From a virus (lineage: Duplodnaviria; Heunggongvirae; Uroviricota; Caudoviricetes), in IMG/VR virus record IMGVR_UViG_3300001199_000003, positions 122,537 through 170,618 of that record: a stretch of 48,082 bases of DNA; one strand, given 5' to 3'. This document shows positions 7,741-43,823 of the stretch, one piece after another; positions within the stretch are counted from its first letter, which is position 1; every line of letters begins with the position of its first letter. The position numbers were made by a program, and so were the translations under genes. The notes beneath the pieces were generated by a model, which saw only the letters and a program-made list of their open reading frames with translations, was not told where the DNA came from and did no database searches.

Positions 7741-10439
7741 TAGATTGCCCACCACTGAGTTCCGTCAGAAACTACAGTAATCGCAACATATTGCGAGTTA
7801 ATAAGTACAGTATTTGATCCGTCGATAAGTTCAGTCAAGTTTCCTTTAACTGTAACTACGTTTCCTGAAGCATCAATTTTCTTAAAGAAGAAAACCGAAC
7901 CAGGAGAAGAAGCTGCAGGAGGAAGAGTGAAAATAATCGCTCCGCCAGTTGCGTCACCTAAAAGGACGTTATCTGAAGTCATCGCGGTATAGTTACCAGT
8001 TTTAATCGAAATCGCTACTGGGCCACCAATAGCATCTGCGCCAGCAGGACCAGCAGGACCTGGAGGACCTTGAGGGCCGACTCCGCCGCCTCCGCCGCCG
8101 CCTGAAGCGCCGCCAGCCGATATGCGGAATTCTAAAGAATCACCAACTTCAAGCTGCTGAAGAATTTGAATCTGAGAACTTGCGGTTCCGGCAGATCCTA
8201 CTTCAGCCCAATCAATTCCTAAACGTAAATACTGGCCATTCAAAAATACTTGAAGCGATCCTTTACCTACAGTGTAATACTGAGTAATAAACGCTAAGCG
8301 CGAGTTAGGAGGCAAATCAATAATTGAACCAATCGTAACTGGTCCATTAAGTGAAGTAGGTGGAGTTTCACCAGAAGCCACAATATCAACGGGCTCGTCG
8401 TAAGACGGACTATCTAAAGAAGCAAGTAGAGTACCAAAAGCTTGATCTAATTTTTTAATAGCTTTAGTTAAATTATCGCCATCATTTACGATGAAGTTAC
8501 CTTGACCAGTACCTTCTTGAATAATAGTAATAGCGAACGGAGCGTTCATGTTGAAATTTACAGCGTTGGTACAAGTACCAGCAGATGTATTAGTTACACG
8601 AACGGTATCGTCATTCGGATTAGGACGAACTACCGCTGAAAAATCAGGATAAAAGGTTCCAGCAAAAGCTGCTTGAGCTAGAGTCGCCACTTGCTGAGCA
8701 GTTTGGCCAGTAGTAACAGTAAGCTCTACACCAATTTTTCCAACTATCGGAGTAGGATCTACGCCAGTGCCGTCTTTATTGACCCACATGTAATATTCGC
8801 GAGCGTCGGCAGAACTTCCAAAGAAGAAGTAGTCATTCGATGTCATCGAAGCTGCGTCACCGAAAGTATAATCAGTTATTTCAGGCAATGCACCTGGATT
8901 AATAGCAGAAGAATAGTTAGGTCTAGAAGCTGATTCTGAAGGTGAACCGATATATTGGAGAAGCTGGCGAGGTACTCCATCGTCGATTTCTTCAGTTTCA
9001 CCCATTTCTAGTTCTGAGCCAATGAATCGAACATAAACGCGAGGCATTACTCCGCCATTATCGGCACGAAGCAAGAACCAAAATACGTCCTCACCTTGAG
9101 GAACAGAGGCGCGATCAGCAATATAAATATCGCGAGTGCTAGAAGGAGTTGGAGAAGTCGAATAAGATCCGAAAGTATATTTAGCTTTTGCTCCGCCTGC
9201 ACCAGTAGATGCTCCGGCGAAAGGAATAGTTAAAGTTACTTGGCTTAACGAATCAACTGTTTGAATCTGGTAATACCCAGAAACGGTTTCAGCACCAAGC
9301 TTAACCCAGTCACCAGCCTGTAAAGGCCCAGTCCATGCGATAGATCCTACTGAGGATACAATCGCAGAAGAATTTGTGAAAACTAAGTTTGGAGATACTT
9401 CAACGTCGCGAATTAAAGTTACATAAGCAACTTCGTTCTCAGATAAGGTAATATCAGTTGAAGGATCTGGGTTGGCTAAGAAACGATATTCAAGACGAGA
9501 TCCAACAACTTTAAGAACGATATCTTCGTCCCAGTTAATTAGACCTGCAGTGTCAGGACTATGGGAAATAACACCGGCACCGGTAGTGATCGTATTACCT
9601 AAATCGGTACGCAATGAATCAATAGAACCGGCAGAAGATGGAGAATACCAGTAAACAGTACCTTTGATTTCCTGGAGCGATGTCATGATCGCATTCATCC
9701 AGTCTTTCAAGGTCATGAGCATCTTATCGCCACCGTGGAACGGATTGATCGAGTTAGATGAAGAAGTTGAAGGGCTTTCTGTTCGGCCTTCAGGTTGTGC
9801 AGTCCACGGATAAACGTAGAACGGATTCGGAGAAGCTCCGCCAGTACCTAAACGGAACATCATCCAACGTGCGTCCGTGATGGACACTACGTTGTTACCA
9901 GAATCAGTGGTAATCGTAGCAATTGGCAATACGTTAGTTGCGAACGTGCTGGTAGTGATCTTAATGCGGTATCTAAGGATCTGGGCACGGGGAGCGTTTT
10001 TAGTAGTTTCGTTATTAGTAGTCGGGTTCCAGATATAAACTTGAGAGCTGGTAGTGTCATCAATAAAGCGTTCATATTCAAGGCCAACATAGTTGATAGC
10101 ACTTGGGGCGAAAGCTCCATCAATGATATTGTTTGTAGCCGAATTCAATTGCTGAGTTGGAGTACCGACCGGAACAAGGTAAAAGGTTCCAGACTGACTG
10201 GAGCTAACGTGAAATACAGCACCAGGATCAACAATCAATTGAAGACCGCTTGCGGCTCCACCGATGGCTCCTGCCATACTGATCTCAAAGCCCCTCATGA
10301 GGTAGCCTTGACTAGTTCCTGTTACGAATGATTTAATTAATTCATCAAAATCATTGGATACAGCAGATTCAAGGGAGCGCATGTCTGGGACATCTACCCT
10401 CTGCTGGCTGATCCAGTTAATTCTACGTTTCACGCCCAT
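7740..10439 (-). CDS. Baseplate-attached fibre protein (899 aa) with short collagen stub and C-terminal beta domain
   Basis: GPQGPPGPAGPAGAD (5 Gly-X-Y triplets) after a poly-Gly linker; C-terminal KTGNYT...TLP.A...KKID...IDG...SDGTQW domain typical of phage fibres. Shares domains with baseplate J and the 110-aa protein. Confidence 0.7.
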   Translation of the reverse strand: MGVKRRINWISQQRVDVPDMRSLESAVSNDFDELIKSFVTGTSQGYLMRGFEISMAGAIGGAASGLQLIVDPGAVFHVSSSQSGTFYLVPVGTPTQQLNSATNNIIDGAFAPSAINYVGLEYERFIDDTTSSQVYIWNPTTNNETTKNAPRAQILRYRIKITTSTFATNVLPIATITTDSGNNVVSITDARWMMFRLGTGGASPNPFYVYPWTAQPEGRTESPSTSSSNSINPFHGGDKMLMTLKDWMNAIMTSLQEIKGTVYWYSPSSAGSIDSLRTDLGNTITTGAGVISHSPDTAGLINWDEDIVLKVVGSRLEYRFLANPDPSTDITLSENEVAYVTLIRDVEVSPNLVFTNSSAIVSSVGSIAWTGPLQAGDWVKLGAETVSGYYQIQTVDSLSQVTLTIPFAGASTGAGGAKAKYTFGSYSTSPTPSSTRDIYIADRASVPQGEDVFWFLLRADNGGVMPRVYVRFIGSELEMGETEEIDDGVPRQLLQYIGSPSESASRPNYSSAINPGALPEITDYTFGDAASMTSNDYFFFGSSADAREYYMWVNKDGTGVDPTPIVGKIGVELTVTTGQTAQQVATLAQAAFAGTFYPDFSAVVRPNPNDDTVRVTNTSAGTCTNAVNFNMNAPFAITIIQEGTGQGNFIVNDGDNLTKAIKKLDQAFGTLLASLDSPSYDEPVDIVASGETPPTSLNGPVTIGSIIDLPPNSRLAFITQYYTVGKGSLQVFLNGQYLRLGIDWAEVGSAGTASSQIQILQQLEVGDSLEFRISAGGASGGGGGGGVGPQGPPGPAGPAGADAIGGPVAISIKTGNYTAMTSDNVLLGDATGGAIIFTLPPAASSPGSVFFFKKIDASGNVVTVKGNLTELIDGSNTVLINSQYVAITVVSDGTQWWAI

Positions 10440-10472
10440 TATGTTACCCTTTAGACCTTAGAGACTACCAAA

Positions 10473-10485
10473 TATAAGATTGTCA
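10473..10485 (-). promoter_or_regulatory. Candidate phage late-promoter motif TGACAATCTTATA (copy 1)
   Basis: Exact 13-nt match to 24166-24178. Both lie in divergent intergenic gaps pointing into structural operons; this copy is 33 nt upstream of ATG 10439. Confidence 0.55.
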
Positions 10486-10590
10486 TGTTGCTATGAGTCC
10501 CAAAATCCTGTTGCTTACCCTTTAGATATCATATAAGATAGGACTAAGATGTAGCTGAATCTTACGAGTAAGCCTTATATAGGAGTTACC

Positions 10591-11040
10591 TTGGGTAAAA
10601 ATACGCGTGGCAACAAAGAGTATTCTAAAGAACAAGAGCTTAAACATGAAAATAAGGAATTACGTAATAAAATCAGAGAATTAGAAGGCGAAATCAGACA
10701 ATTATCAAGGCAATATTCGCGAACGCGCAAGCAGTTTGCCCGTATGGATCTTGATAGACACGCCTATGTTCAGGAAATTATTCAAGAACACATTGATAAT
10801 GAAAAAGTTGAGCAAAATGCTCAAGATATGCTTCAAACTATGAAAGAAAAATGGCAGTGTCGCGAATGCGGAGAAGGCCAACTTGAGATATCAGTTTATA
10901 CCCGACTCGATGGAACATTCTACCATCGCGTTTGCAACTGCTGTCCTAATCGAACTAAGAGCCAAAAGTATGATCCAGAAACTGTTACGGGAATCATGCG
11001 AAAGCCTAAAGTTCAACCTAAAGATAAAAAGAAGTTCTAG
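10591..11040 (+). CDS. Hypothetical coiled-coil + Zn-ribbon protein
   Basis: TTG start with SD AGGAG; heptad-rich N-half; CRECG...CNCC. Confidence 0.7.
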   Translation: MGKNTRGNKEYSKEQELKHENKELRNKIRELEGEIRQLSRQYSRTRKQFARMDLDRHAYVQEIIQEHIDNEKVEQNAQDMLQTMKEKWQCRECGEGQLEISVYTRLDGTFYHRVCNCCPNRTKSQKYDPETVTGIMRKPKVQPKDKKKF

Positions 11041-11071
11041 TAAGTATCTAATTTCATTAAAAACAAACACC

Positions 11072-11118
11072 TTGCATATCTCCTGTCGTCTGGTATAATA
11101 AAGACTGACAGGAGGTAT
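11072..11118 (+). promoter_or_regulatory. Sigma70-type promoter (TTGCAT-16-TATAAT, extended TG) nested in a 16-bp inverted repeat that covers the SD of the lytic transglycosylase
   Basis: -35 at 11072-11077, -10 at 11094-11099. Arms 11076-11091 and 11102-11118 pair with one bulge and one G-U; loop GGTATAATAA; right arm contains GGAGG. Confidence 0.75.
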
Positions 11119-11120
11119 CT

Positions 11121-11561
11121 ATGTCAATAGCAGCGATTATTTTGGCAGCAGCGAAAAAGGCCGGAGTGTCTGGTTCATTGCTTCTAGCGATCTGCACTCA
11201 TGAAAGTGGATTAAAAAATGTTTTAGTTCCTCACGATGGCGGATCTCCGAGTTACGGTATTTGTCAAATAAAATACGAAACCGCAAAAATGATTGGTTTC
11301 CAAGGTGAAGCCAAAGATTTGATGGGCCCGCGCACAAATGCGAAATGGGCGGCTGCTTATCTTAAATTCCAAAAGTCTAGATATGACGGCGATTGGATGA
11401 AATCAACTGCAGCTTATAATTCTGGCACTTACAACGAATCAAGTAAAGTTCCAGGATGTCCAAGAAATCTAAAGTATATTCGTTTGGTGCAAAGTAAATT
11501 ATCAGAAAAGTTGCAAGACAGGCTTAATTGCGCTATAGTTACTAGAAACGAGGATCAATGA
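11121..11561 (+). CDS. Soluble lytic transglycosylase (SLT domain), candidate endolysin
   Basis: Catalytic ICTHESG, SYGICQI, N..WAA.YL and AAYNSG motifs of the SLT/goose-lysozyme family; SD GGAGG. Confidence 0.9.
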   Translation: MSIAAIILAAAKKAGVSGSLLLAICTHESGLKNVLVPHDGGSPSYGICQIKYETAKMIGFQGEAKDLMGPRTNAKWAAAYLKFQKSRYDGDWMKSTAAYNSGTYNESSKVPGCPRNLKYIRLVQSKLSEKLQDRLNCAIVTRNEDQ

Positions 11562-12124
11562 AAATCATGTCCTTAGACTGCGAATACAATCAACCTAGCG
11601 GTAAGACCATACAAATTGGTGCAGCTGTTTTCAATCCTAAAACCGGTATTGAGATAGACCGAATCTTATTATATATAAACCCGAACGAGCCTCTCAACCC
11701 AGAAATCATTGAATTAACAGGTATTAGTGAAAACGAAGCACAAAATGGAACCACAATACAGGAGGCCTATGAGGAACTTAGTAGGTTTCACGCTAAACAC
11801 AAATGCTTCAGAAACCCTCTTGTTTGGGGATCAGGAAACTGGAACGACAGTGATCATATCTACCGAGAATACCGAGCTTCACTGGGCACTGGGCCCAGAA
11901 ATAGTGATGGAGCTACCGAAAACTTCATGGGACTCAGAGTCTTAGACGTTAAAACTATATATCAATCAGTGCAAATTTTCAGAAATTCAAGATACCAAGG
12001 CGGCTTGAAAGAAAGCATGACAAAAATGAAACTAGATTTTGAGGGTCAAGAGCATAATGCGTTAGCAGATGCTAGAAATACATTCAAAATGTGGTTTCAT
12101 TTGGTTAAAATGTTTAAAGCCTAA
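11558..12124 (+). CDS. DEDDh 3'-5' exonuclease (DnaQ/RNase T-like)
   Basis: ExoI SLDCEYN, ExoII NDSD, ExoIII HNALADA; ATGA overlap with the SLT gene. Confidence 0.88.
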   Translation: MKIMSLDCEYNQPSGKTIQIGAAVFNPKTGIEIDRILLYINPNEPLNPEIIELTGISENEAQNGTTIQEAYEELSRFHAKHKCFRNPLVWGSGNWNDSDHIYREYRASLGTGPRNSDGATENFMGLRVLDVKTIYQSVQIFRNSRYQGGLKESMTKMKLDFEGQEHNALADARNTFKMWFHLVKMFKA

Positions 12125-12546
12125 GAGCGATCTAAAGCAAATAGCGGGACCTGGCCGACAAAATTAAAATTCATTTTGTAAGTAGCTTTAGTTGCCATTG
12201 TATGAGTTTCTTGGCTCACTTTGGCTTGTGGGATATATAGAATATCTTCACTAGTTGAACGATCCTGAATACGAATCGAGATGTACGGTGAAGCCAAAAG
12301 ATCAATGAATAATGGGCGCATATTCTGGGCTTGTAATCCACCGCTATTTTTAACACGAAGACCTTGAACAGATCCGCGAATACTCAATCGAGTGGGCGCG
12401 ATTTCCTGAGCATGGGCTGCATCAATTCCATAAATTTCTTGTTCTCCGTAATCAACAGTCAAAGTAATAGATTGAACAACCTTATAAACTTGGTTATTAA
12501 TATATAGTTTGATATGAGCACCGGTTAACGTAATTGGCTGAGCCAT
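12121..12546 (-). CDS. Tail-tube-fold protein (tube or baseplate tube-initiator paralogue)
   Basis: 141 aa; pattern TGAHIKLYIN..V..VQS.....YG...IYGI....AQE....R....GSV..LR resembles myovirus tail tube proteins. Last gene of the baseplate operon. Confidence 0.65.
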   Translation of the reverse strand: MAQPITLTGAHIKLYINNQVYKVVQSITLTVDYGEQEIYGIDAAHAQEIAPTRLSIRGSVQGLRVKNSGGLQAQNMRPLFIDLLASPYISIRIQDRSTSEDILYIPQAKVSQETHTMATKATYKMNFNFVGQVPLFALDRS

Positions 12547-24151: not shown

Positions 24152-24165
24152 AGTTTTCCCTCATC

Positions 24166-24178
24166 TATAAGATTGTCA
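24166..24178 (-). promoter_or_regulatory. Candidate phage late-promoter motif TGACAATCTTATA (copy 2)
   Basis: Identical to 10473-10485; 14 nt upstream of ATG 24151. Confidence 0.55.
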
Positions 24179-24182
24179 GGTG

Positions 24183-24215
24183 AGGAGATCTCCTTAACTA
24201 TGATATATCGTAAGA
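24183..24215 (+). promoter_or_regulatory. 12-bp palindrome AGGAGATCTCCT plus leaderless promoter TATGATAT-N9-ATG
   Basis: Perfect palindrome 24183-24194 in the 64-nt divergent gap; TATGATAT at 24199-24206, then 9 nt, then ATG 24216; no usable SD. Confidence 0.55.
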
Positions 24216-33610: not shown

Positions 33611-33770
33611 ATTTGCGCTTATTTTTATATTTAGGCTTGGTTTTACCGTGCTTCCCACATCTCTTAGCGTTTTCGCCTCGATTTGGCTTACAGAACGAAC
33701 AGGAGAGCTGATTTCTACGCTCTCTGTTGTCTACTGTTGAATTGGTGTTTAGGTTTGTTTTTTTAGCCAT
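33609..33770 (-). CDS. Small basic Cys/His protein (53 aa): MAKKTNLNTNSTVDNRERRNQLSCSFCKPNRGENAKRCGKHGKTKPKYKNKRK
   Basis: Hand-translated, below the ORF-track cutoff. TAATG overlap with the Rrf2 gene; ends at the terminator. Confidence 0.7.
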   Translation of the reverse strand: MAKKTNLNTNSTVDNRERRNQLSCSFCKPNRGENAKRCGKHGKTKPKYKNKRK

Positions 33771-34108
33771 TATAGTTTGGTGTTACGGAACGCATCTAAA
33801 ATGTTTTTACGAAGAATAGCAGCTAAACTGGAATCTCCAAAATCACTATCTAGTTCTTGAAAACGTCCTACGGCTATAGCTACATTGTAGGCCGAAAGAT
33901 CTAATTCCTTATTTAAAGCATGTCCTCCGCCTGGACCACGCTTAACTATTACGATTCCACTAGAGCGCAAGTTTCTCATGATTTGCTCAAGGAAGCTGAC
34001 TGTAGTCCCAATCTCTGCGGCGATGTCGGCAGTGCGAACAAAACCTTCTCTTTTCTTTAATGCACTCACCGCATTAATACCAATTTCGAGTTTTTTATTA
34101 AGTTTCAT
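33770..34108 (-). CDS. Rrf2-family transcriptional regulator lacking Fe-S cysteines
   Basis: wHTH signature IAAEIGTTVSFLEQIMRNLRSSGIV..KRGPGGGH.L; no Cys in the protein; SD GGAGG. Confidence 0.88.
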   Translation of the reverse strand: MKLNKKLEIGINAVSALKKREGFVRTADIAAEIGTTVSFLEQIMRNLRSSGIVIVKRGPGGGHALNKELDLSAYNVAIAVGRFQELDSDFGDSSLAAILRKNILDAFRNTKL

Positions 34109-39989: not shown

Positions 39990-40961
39990 CTACCAGTTCT
40001 TAATTTTGTTGAAATTCCAGTTGTTATTATAGGCAGTTGGGTTTCTGTCAAAGAAGTCTGTGACTTCAATTTGATTGATCTTTTTATAAAACCATTTGCC
40101 TACCGGATTATATGTCACATCGTAGATCGGGTCGATCTTAATATCGCGAAGTTTCTTATTTACACGGGACTGAACAAAGTTCTTGAGTTGAGTATCTGTA
40201 ATACCTTCGATTTTACCTTTGGCGAAAATATTATCAATGATAACAGATTCAGATTCAAAACATTCTTGAGCAATCTTTATAATTTCTTTAGATAATTCTT
40301 CTCTGTCTAGCCCACATTCGTCTACAAACGTATTGAATAACCACGAGTCGGCATCGGCATGTAGAGCTTCGTCTCTCACTGAATAAGATAATCCAGTGAA
40401 GACGTTTTTAAGTAAATTTTTTGGTGGATTCTGAAAGCTCATAAGGAAAGCGAATGAGCTGTAAAGGACTACGCCTTCAATAAAAGAAAATGTGGCCAAA
40501 CTAATCGCAATATCTTTGGCGGATTCTTTTTTACCACGAGCGAGCTGCTTACCAATAAAATCCATACGTTTCTTCATGTCTGGCTCGTCCATAAATGAAA
40601 GGTAGAATTCTTTAGTAGAAAGGCCGAGCTTTTCATTTAACTTATCGTAGAACAGTGCGTGCTCTGTCTCCATAGCAGCAAAGACGGAAGCCATAGCTCT
40701 AATTTCATGTTTTGGAAAATGACGATAAACAACGTCGATCCAGTAATCACCAACTTTTGTTTCGTAAGCTGTGAATAATTTTAGAACAGTGTGAATTCCA
40801 TGCTTTTCTGATTCAGTAAACTGAGTGTTGTACTGCATTAGATCTGAGTCAACTTCTATCTGCGAGTGGGTCCAGTGGTGATCGCTTTGTGCTTTTGCAA
40901 ACTTAAAGGCTTTATCATATTCAAAAGGTCGGAAATTAATCCTAACGTCGCGTAAGCTCAT
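39990..40961 (-). CDS. nrdB: Class I ribonucleotide reductase beta subunit
   Basis: Ligands E67, E98, H101, E162, E198, H201; radical Tyr105 (ETEHALFY); C-terminal DFF...TAY. Confidence 0.95.
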   Translation of the reverse strand: MSLRDVRINFRPFEYDKAFKFAKAQSDHHWTHSQIEVDSDLMQYNTQFTESEKHGIHTVLKLFTAYETKVGDYWIDVVYRHFPKHEIRAMASVFAAMETEHALFYDKLNEKLGLSTKEFYLSFMDEPDMKKRMDFIGKQLARGKKESAKDIAISLATFSFIEGVVLYSSFAFLMSFQNPPKNLLKNVFTGLSYSVRDEALHADADSWLFNTFVDECGLDREELSKEIIKIAQECFESESVIIDNIFAKGKIEGITDTQLKNFVQSRVNKKLRDIKIDPIYDVTYNPVGKWFYKKINQIEVTDFFDRNPTAYNNNWNFNKIKNW

Positions 40962-42332: not shown

Positions 42333-42537
42333 AAAACCTCTTCTGAATAATAGCAAACATTAAGGACACCAGTAAAGATGGAAAAAATGAGTAAATAAAA
42401 AGAATAATATAAAAGAAACCAATTGCGACTGGAGTACCAGACGTAGTGAATTGTCCCCATTGGTTTCCTAAGCTTAGACTAATTAGAAACATAGTGAACT
42501 GGATCATTAGAAAGTTCAATAGAGTTTTTTTAAACAT
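42313..42537 (-). CDS. Small two-TM membrane protein (74 aa)
   Basis: Two hydrophobic segments; SD GGAGG inside the HNH 3' end. Confidence 0.6.
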   Translation of the reverse strand: MFKKTLLNFLMIQFTMFLISLSLGNQWGQFTTSGTPVAIGFFYIILFIYSFFPSLLVSLMFAIIQKRFYEGRIS

Positions 42538-43412
42538 AATTCCTCCTGAGATTGGTCCTTATCAGTATCTCCTACTGGATCAGTATCTCCTACTGGATCA
42601 GAATTGTCAACTTTAAAATTGAAGGTCCAACCTTTATGTTTCTTTCTTCCTTGCTTTGCGTTAAGAACGCGACTAATATTGGAACCCTGTAAATTCAATT
42701 TTTTAGCCGCATCTGCTATAGATTCAAAACTCAATTCTTCTTTAGTTACAATATTAATCGCAATTACTGGTACTGCAATTAATAGTTTAGATTTTTGACG
42801 TGCTGCAATACGAGCAGGAGTACTTACTCCTTTTCTTACTTTAGATAGAGCATCACAGTGATCTTTAGAAAATTTAACACCTTTTAACGGATGTCCTAAT
42901 TTTTCCCATCTTTCTTTGTTGTCTTTTTTGGTCTTTTCTTTATGACATAACTCGCAGAGCGCCTGGACGTTTTCTAAGCCAAGAGATTGACCTCCAAACA
43001 CTATCGGAATAACATGATCAACCTCTGGAGACCTACCGATATCGCAAAAATGTTTTAAGTTCTTCATTAGCCAAAAATATTTATCTTTCTTATAAGACCT
43101 ACTGCGCTTTCTTAGTTTACTATCTTCCACTTTCTTCAAAGCTGGAGCATAATCGTAAGAACAGTAGCCACATTTCCAATCCTGTCTCACAAGAAGACTG
43201 TAAAGACCATGTTCTTTTTGTGGCCTTGCCCAGACTAAAACAGAGAAGGTGCATTCAGATGAACACCATTTTTGGCGATTGCCTTTTAGGGCAGAAAGAC
43301 ACCAAACGCAAGTTCTTGAAATATTACGCTTAAGATCAAGCAAGCGATAATATCTTCCCCTAAAAGTCTTAGTTAATTCAAGTATTTGTGGATTTTTAGA
43401 CATATTAAACAT
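42516..43412 (-). CDS. HNH endonuclease with Zn ribbons and C-terminal NUMOD3/NUMOD1-like DNA-binding modules
   Basis: CVWC..CSSEC, CGYC, EVDHVIPI.FGG..LGLENVQALCELCH..KT; KFSKDH...LSK (NUMOD3-like); FESIADAAKKLNL..SNISRVLN (NUMOD1-like). Upstream TGATATAAT-5nt-ATG with no SD. Confidence 0.85.
   Translation of the reverse strand: MFNMSKNPQILELTKTFRGRYYRLLDLKRNISRTCVWCLSALKGNRQKWCSSECTFSVLVWARPQKEHGLYSLLVRQDWKCGYCSYDYAPALKKVEDSKLRKRSRSYKKDKYFWLMKNLKHFCDIGRSPEVDHVIPIVFGGQSLGLENVQALCELCHKEKTKKDNKERWEKLGHPLKGVKFSKDHCDALSKVRKGVSTPARIAARQKSKLLIAVPVIAINIVTKEELSFESIADAAKKLNLQGSNISRVLNAKQGRKKHKGWTFNFKVDNSDPVGDTDPVGDTDKDQSQEELCLKKLY
42561..42601. repeat. 18-bp tandem direct repeat (2.3 copies of ATCAGTATCTCCTACTGG) encoding DPVGDT-DPVGDT
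   Basis: Units at 42561-42578 and 42579-42596, partial unit at 42597-42601. Confidence 0.9.
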
Positions 43413-43445
43413 ACTACATTATATCACGGAGTTAATCTTATATCC

Positions 43446-43823
43446 ATGACATTACCACGCTCACAAGCCCAGACTGAAGCCCAAACCGCACTTGATGAAG
43501 TGACAGCCGCTGCTAACGCAAGATTTATTGCAGCTGCCGATATTCAAATCCAAGAGGCCATCGACAAGGGTATGTTTTGGATTAGCGCTACTACCACAGA
43601 TGACATAGATCCAGAGACCGTTTTCCGTCACTATGCGGATCTTGGATATGGCGTGTCATTCCCAGACTACCCCTCGAACCTTGCCTTGCAGCCCGCCGAA
43701 CTATTTGGAGCATATTGGATCAACTTTTGGTCAAACGGCGGTTTTATTCCACGTCTTTTAAGAAAGCCTTACAGGTTACTTATTTCCTGGCATACTCCAG
43801 TGCCTTTTTATCCGTTCCCATAA
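43446..43823 (+). CDS. Orphan plus-strand hypothetical protein (125 aa)
   Basis: Start re-assigned to MTLPR; only plus-strand gene in the right-hand region; stop abuts the convergent gene (TAATTA). Confidence 0.7.
   Translation: MTLPRSQAQTEAQTALDEVTAAANARFIAAADIQIQEAIDKGMFWISATTTDDIDPETVFRHYADLGYGVSFPDYPSNLALQPAELFGAYWINFWSNGGFIPRLLRKPYRLLISWHTPVPFYPFP

Follow-up and report, generated by a model that had tools for sequence, protein, structure and literature searches.

Introduction

In bacteriophage T4, the genes e (encoding lysozyme), soc, 49 and I-TevI have their start sites sequestered in hairpins that contain a nested late promoter (Uzan and Miller, 2010; PMC3014915). The outer promoters of these genes are early, and the nested promoter is late (PMC3014915). 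A second system is IS10/Tn10, which is protected from external promoters (Davis, Simons and Kleckner, 1985, Cell 43:379; cited in PMC13181058); there, transcripts entering from outside include a sequence that pairs with the translation start and lies upstream of the element's host-type promoter, and only the transcript from that promoter is translated. A third is the translational activation of mom in phage Mu, where a small zinc-binding protein, Com, is encoded directly upstream and the target start is held in a stem-loop (PMC6483171).

The locus described here lies in what we call the window, that is, the whole stretch of 48,082 nucleotides that was analysed, which is the final 48 kb of a 170,618-bp IMG/VR virus record rated complete by CheckV. 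Its central feature is a hairpin over the start of a gene for an SLT lytic transglycosylase. We suggest, at a probability of roughly 65%, that this hairpin is a cis-acting RNA mask which would make translation of SLT depend on the promoter from which the message was made.

What the locus has in common with the T4 genes is that longer transcripts, initiated upstream, have the Shine-Dalgarno sequence (SD) or AUG closed off in a helix, here by prediction, and that, as for T4 e, the controlled gene encodes a muralytic enzyme. The differences are that the inner promoter is TTGCAT-16-TGgTATAAT, a host sigma-70 extended -10 promoter, and not the T4 late TATAAATA; that the outer promoter is the phage-specific AATCTT found at tail genes and not an early host-type promoter; and that the phage shows no relation to T4 and the mask is here predicted from sequence. 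With IS10 the locus shares a predicted inner promoter of the host type that has the 5′ pairing partner upstream, but IS10 and IS50 protect transposase genes of mobile elements against accidental outside transcripts, whereas here the gene is that of a phage SLT protein in a conserved phage module, with a conserved phage promoter and gene upstream. With Mu com-mom it shares a small gene for a zinc-binding protein directly upstream of a start held in a stem-loop; unlike in Mu, there is no detectable homology to Com, and the promoter lies inside the mask, a feature that Mu mom lacks.

The promoter-in-hairpin rule of translating only one's own transcript is textbook knowledge for T4 e, soc and 49 and for IS10, and IS50 works similarly to IS10. 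To our knowledge, the rule has rarely been documented outside the T4 and IS systems. What is new here is the predicted presence of this known device in another phage lineage, that of an uncultured phage of about 170 kb, with an inner promoter of the host type.

Results

Genomic setting of the SLT gene

The phage is uncultured and myovirus-like and has 41% G+C, and the window holds its tail and baseplate region. Nearly all genes of this region are carried on the - strand, the exception being an island of three genes on the + strand, in which a gene for a Zn-ribbon protein is followed by the SLT gene and then by a DEDDh exonuclease gene (Table 1). Among the 50,697 cultured-phage records of INPHARED there was no DNA or protein match for the SLT region, including the homologues of SLT and of the Zn-ribbon protein, and T4 Gp23 gave no match for the phage; on these two results the phage is not recognisable as a relative of T4. 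Rfam had no match in 10300-12300.

Table 1. Positions of the genes, promoter elements and hairpin arms of the + strand island, numbered from the first letter of the window.
Feature	Position	Strand	Remarks
AATCTT, candidate phage-specific promoter P1	10558..10563	+	33 nt before the TTG start of the Zn-ribbon gene
Zn-ribbon gene, 149 aa	10591..11040	+	TTG start; presumed source of read-through transcripts
-35-like hexamer TTGCAT of P2	11072..11077	+	from sequence; same in L018
Hairpin 5′ arm (anti-SD)	11076..11091	+	in the -35/spacer of nested promoter P2; from folding
Extended -10 element TGGTATAAT of P2	11091..11099	+	in/at the hairpin loop; ends 21 nt before ATG
Hairpin 3′ arm	11102..11118	+	contains SD AGGAGG (11110-11115) and the predicted P2 start point; from folding
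SLT lytic transglycosylase gene, 146 aa	11121..11561	+	PF01464, E 1.1e-16
DEDDh 3′-5′ exonuclease gene	11558..12124	+	PF00929, E 2.6e-15

The SLT protein matches PF01464 with 60.9 bits, against a curated cut-off of 21.3, and the two residues of its catalytic ES motif, E28 and S29, are invariant among three homologues. The protein is a bare SLT domain without a signal peptide, and its gene is the sole match of the SLT profile in the genome. Phage_lysozyme and Amidase_2 had no match in the genome; neither had Peptidase_M15_4, whose control matched in one genome only, nor GH19 and GH108, whose controls matched in no genome, so that these last two results are uninformative. It is reasonable to regard SLT as a putative endolysin. 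We also note a 223-aa protein (L066:357-1028, - strand; genome 50856-51527) with AATCTT upstream, which shows a weak match to the PHROG 'endolysin' family phrog_894 (E 3.9e-6, residues 153-211 only) and matches no Pfam family; it is possibly a second muralytic or wall-binding protein.

The exonuclease gene had been credited with a coupled start of its own in a sequence-only reading of the locus, and this is what we found: its start codon and the SLT stop share bases (ATGA), and a separate GAGG SD precedes it. Its 3′ end carries a 19-nt inverted repeat (12024-12042 and 12084-12102) that is 89% complementary across a 41-nt gap. The exonuclease gene and the convergent - strand gene 12121-12546 share 4 nt, and no terminator separates them, so that late transcripts of the - strand may continue in antisense into the SLT island. 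At 11159-11175 (+), about 40 nt within the SLT coding region, there is a terminator-like hairpin followed by a T-rich stretch, which may be due to chance.

A predicted hairpin over the SLT start site

The same reading had described a pairing of two arms with one bulge and one G-U pair, a buried SD and a -10 box in the loop, all of which matches the sequence base for base. The stem has 16 bp, with T11106 bulged and a single G-U pair (T11079-G11115), the loop at 11092-11101 is GGTATAATAA, and the stem ends 3 nt upstream of the AUG. RNAfold across the region returns this hairpin in both contexts used, with -22.3 kcal/mol in 56 nt (z -5.5; none of 200 dinucleotide shuffles is as stable) and -28.6 kcal/mol in 111 nt (z -3.4; again no dinucleotide shuffle is as stable), and in each of them it is both the minimum-energy and the centroid structure.

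We ranked start sites in silico by an opening cost, defined as the free energy needed to keep positions -15..+3 unpaired in a read-through context of -70..+20, for 254 crudely called genes. The SLT start costs 18.3 kcal/mol to open in read-through RNA, which is rank 1 of the 254 (median 5.3, 99th percentile 13.3), and the hairpin's opening cost was matched by none of 300 dinucleotide shuffles of the upstream half. On a transcript beginning at the predicted P2 start the cost is 6.4 kcal/mol, near the genomic median. The bare stability of the hairpin falls in the 0.1-1 percentile of the 56-nt windows of the genome, in which about 25-40 sites are equally stable. It is thus the placement over the start site, and not bare stability, that distinguishes this hairpin. 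On transcripts initiated upstream, the SD is in this way predicted to be sequestered, as in the masks of the T4 type.

The predicted nested promoter

P2 consists of TTGCAT, a 16-nt spacer and TATAAT (11094-11099), with TG at 11091-11092. The TGn extension gives it the sequence of an extended -10 promoter, a form of the sigma-70 type that had been proposed before, although its -35 hexamer begins with TTG and is weak, agreeing with TTGACA at 3 of 6 positions; this is why a consensus promoter scanner does not list P2. In the window the extended -10 pattern occurs 6 times, where 2.3 occurrences are expected. P2 does not belong to the phage late class, represented in T4 by the gp55-dependent TATAAATA, and AATCTT, the candidate late motif of this phage, is absent from 11041-11120. 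From the usual spacing of 6-8 nt after the -10 element, transcription would start at about 11105-11108, and the predicted transcript would omit the 5′ strand of the helix. The architecture at the core of the sequence-only reading, in which an arm lying 5′ of a nested start sequesters the SD, is borne out by these predictions and strengthened by the conservation and covariation seen in relatives.

We rejected a short antisense ORF (- strand) that would take its SD from the left arm, since the -35 hexamer supplies its ATG and relatives do not preserve this codon.

Conservation and covariation in relatives

In viral and metagenome contigs we identified 38 distinct SLT loci including the window, with 27-78% protein identity to the SLT of the window. 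In all eight relatives with at least 67% SLT identity (L018, L019, L020, L021, L022, L023, L036 and L037) the promoter is kept, and its -35/spacer includes an anti-SD. When the nine closest leaders, the window included, are aligned, mean column identity is 68%, and of the non-coding features the promoter is the best conserved: none of the leaders departs from the TG, the A at -11, the T at -7, GGAGG or the ATG, and the rest has diverged, with TGnTAnnnT invariantly present 22-28 nt before the ATG. In more distant relatives the -35 is often a canonical TTGACA, which argues that SLT has its own host-type promoter across the group, and the promoter elements are retained in relatives without the hairpin.

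The hairpin has a narrower distribution. Eight of the nine close leaders (window included) beat their dinucleotide shuffles (p <= 0.025). The same layout with unrelated arms occurs in a few distant loci (L032 and L048, and more weakly L039 and L041), and many more distant relatives, among them L026, L029, L040 and L051, have the same gene order with the hairpin absent or weak, and the hairpin is thus not essential to the module.

Relative to the -10 element, the left arm shifts by up to about 6 bases, and its sequence varies between relatives. RNAalifold on a MAFFT alignment of the nine leaders returned no consensus pairs because the left arm is out of register, and a covariance model built from the window and L018 recovered the leaders of L021 (E 0.012), L022, L020, L036 and L048 only weakly, amid noise. 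In an alignment-free swap test, we fused each start site to the upstream half of every locus; own pairs had an opening cost of 13.6 kcal/mol vs 9.4 kcal/mol for the chimeras (permutation p = 1e-4). In a register test, we lined up the right arms by their GGAGG and read the partners from each sequence's own fold. The position just 3′ of GGAGG pairs as A-U, U-A, G-C, C-G or G-U among the phages, and three to five pair types are seen at the flanking positions. Compared with the window, L018 has T-A in place of A-T at the pair 11078-11116, one pair that has become G-U, and a G-to-A change for which a shift of the bulge makes up.

These patterns bear on the rival explanation that the repeat is a DNA operator, that is, two half-sites bracketing the -10 on which a dimeric regulator represses the nested promoter, RNA pairing being incidental. 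Candidate regulators would be the adjacent Zn-ribbon/coiled-coil protein, which is possibly nucleic-acid-binding and whose linkage is conserved, or a putative Rrf2-like protein at 33770-34108, and the geometry would suit such binding, as the repeat straddles the -10 with half-site centres about 31 bp apart, or three helical turns. A repressor on the inverted repeat had indeed been offered in the sequence-only reading as a way to set the timing, but we obtained no support for it: the half-site is unique in the window beyond chance occurrence, and many relatives have the Zn-ribbon gene without the repeat. The left arm differs in sequence between relatives and shifts against the -10, always complementing the SD region of its own leader. 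G-U pairs are frequent, with 29 in 196 pairs against a single A-C 1x1 mismatch, a count biased by the folding program, which scores G-U as a pair. The + strand also folds better than the - strand in nine of nine close leaders, which is modestly above the genomic background of 66% of start sites. The complementarity to the own SD, the drift of the arms, the common G-U pairs and the strand bias together favour an RNA structure over a DNA operator, which we consider improbable.

The upstream gene and possible read-through

If the hairpin acts on RNA, it would act on transcripts that arrive from upstream. By k-mer enrichment in intergenic sequence we obtained two motifs, TGTGATATA(A/T), which is of the extended -10 type without a -35, and CAATCTTATA, which is found, among other places, 15-36 nt ahead of the genes for baseplate (860 aa) and fibre (899 aa) proteins. 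In 13 of 14 relatives, AATCTT, the core of the second motif, stands 25-55 nt upstream of the Zn-ribbon gene, in surroundings that have diverged. This shared and conserved motif suggests that the Zn-ribbon gene is driven by a phage-specific promoter class common to the tail operons. In the divergent gap at 10440-10590, CAATCTTATA at 10473-10482 (-), CTATCTTATA at 10532-10541 (-) and the AATCTT of P1 (+) point outward, and the AAGATTG ... AATCTT arrangement of this gap is kept in relatives.

No terminator-like site was predicted between 11040 and the hairpin. The stop codon of the Zn-ribbon gene lies 35 nt upstream of the left arm, at which distance ribosomes terminating on this gene would be too far away to open the stem. 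Some relatives have extra hairpins upstream, such as L022, in which a terminator-like AU-rich hairpin (1432-1455) stands just before the nested promoter; this suggests selection to insulate SLT from upstream transcription.

The same terminator-like hairpins would also suit an explanation in which the stem serves to end or insulate upstream transcripts, as an RNase III-type processing site or as a 3′ stabiliser at the end of the Zn-ribbon mRNA, and a stable 16-bp stem directly after a gene is what such a function would call for. The stem is not followed by a U-tract, however, and what is conserved in every relative is complementarity to the SD, for which neither a stabiliser nor a processing site has any need. 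A bulged stem of 16 bp is moreover shorter than typical RNase III substrates. We regard this explanation as having about as little chance as the operator.

The protein encoded by the upstream gene offers a further explanation. It is predicted to consist of a long helix and a C-terminal CxxC...CxxC zinc ribbon (AF2 pLDDT 80.6), and a homologue stands upstream of SLT in 26 of 38 loci, window included. As Com does for mom (PMC6483171), the Zn-ribbon protein might bind the long mRNA and free the SD, and SLT would then be made from read-through RNA only after the protein has accumulated. The Com precedent and the conserved position of the gene directly upstream of a masked start speak for this. No Pfam or PHROG family and nothing significant in the Atlas was found for the protein, though, nor did a profile search of the PDB give anything below E 0.09, and Foldseek gave no significant PDB fold match but generic zinc-ribbon rows only (E > 0.5). 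There is thus no similarity in sequence or fold to Com, to an RNA-binding zinc finger or to any RNA-binding family. The Zn-ribbon gene is also present in many relatives that have no mask, and the nested promoter would already provide a route to translation, so we judge opening by this protein to be slightly less probable still. Finally, complementarity by chance and without function, which the 25-40 or so equally stable sites in 56-nt windows of the genome might seem to allow, is very improbable for a hairpin that ranks first of 254 as a start-site mask, is reached by none of 300 shuffles and is kept with compensating changes in eight relatives that are not near-identical copies (68% leader identity).

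Other candidate masked start sites in the genome

Across the genome, having a promoter motif does not go with stronger masking of a gene (Mann-Whitney p = 0.19), and the other candidate promoter-in-hairpin sites have weak z-scores of -1.2 to -2.0; on these grounds we claim no general rule. Elsewhere in the genome there is a weaker hairpin of the T4 kind that occludes an SD, with an opening cost of 11.1 kcal/mol (rank 9). T4-family homing endonucleases are known to carry such masks. In the window, a gene for a 298-aa HNH/I-HmuI-like homing endonuclease (Pfam; 42516-43480, -) has TGATATAAT ending 6 nt before its start codon, and this start lies under a hairpin that costs 11.8-13.3 kcal/mol to open (rank 4-8 of 254; fold z -1.4). 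At 24152-24215 (-) of the window, the 860-aa baseplate gene has its UGAGG SD paired with CCUCA in a short stem whose loop holds CAATCTTATA; opening this start takes 11.5 kcal/mol (rank 9) and the fold is not significant (z -1.15). At L069:1256-1330 (-; genome 27255-27329), a 10-bp stem of AACCAUACCU with GGGUAUGGUU has CAATCTTATA between its arms and extends over the start region of a 318-aa gene that lacks annotation. This start costs 13.3-13.4 kcal/mol to open (rank 3-4; z -1.96), and we regard the stem as a second candidate promoter-in-hairpin site, with a phage-specific motif.

Discussion

The sequence-only reading had correctly invoked T4 e, soc and 49 as precedents (PMC3014915). Structure, genome rank, conservation and covariation, all obtained in silico, lead us to favor an RNA mask at the SLT start. 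We infer the following course of events, including both start points, the read-through, the effect on translation and any timing. Long transcripts from the AATCTT-type promoter would cross the 80-nt gap into SLT, and such RNA would fold into the 16-bp hairpin once the right arm is made, with the SD locked in the stem. Ribosomes translating the upstream gene would stop 35 nt short of the left arm and could not melt the stem. Transcripts from P2 would begin at about 11105-11108, inside the right arm, and would therefore be without the left arm and have an open SD. SLT would in this way be made only upon firing of the nested promoter.

The earlier description of the locus as a timing switch like that of T4 lysozyme is an assumption that gained no support. 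The nested promoter is of the host type, and the upstream gene has the AATCTT class of the baseplate and fibre operons. With a host-type promoter inside and a promoter of the virion class outside, the T4 polarity of early outside and late inside is not reproduced, and the conservative statement is promoter-selective translation.

A tentative extension, which we hold to be rather doubtful, is that the polarity is reversed, that is, that the mask would keep SLT from being translated on RNA that reads through late, so that the enzyme is made in the pre-late phase alone. The thought arises since the host-type nested promoter needs no phage factor and the incoming RNA would be from the phage-specific AATCTT class. 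If it were true, SLT would have an early or strictly dosed role, for instance in wall remodelling or superinfection control, and would not be a classic late endolysin. We dropped the simpler equation of extended -10 with early, as the TGTGATATA class heads genes of several kinds alike: it precedes those for a GroEL-like chaperonin (L077, genome 54300-56072), the portal (L078, 59446-61191) and a ClpP-like protease (L079, 68040-69011), and in the window it precedes the gene for the RNR small subunit (39990-40961). Sigma70_r2 had no match in the genome, and a phage sigma-factor candidate (genome 64473-65513) was rejected, having no Pfam or PHROG match.

As a compact natural part, the element would use about 50 nt to make the expression of a gene depend on the promoter used. 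For a phage group without a cultured member, it also provides a testable handle on the transcription programme, namely on which promoter class is early and which is late. The maintenance of the device in a family of uncultured phages of about 170 kb that show no detectable relation to T4 suggests that it arises repeatedly and that it may be recognised from sequence alone.
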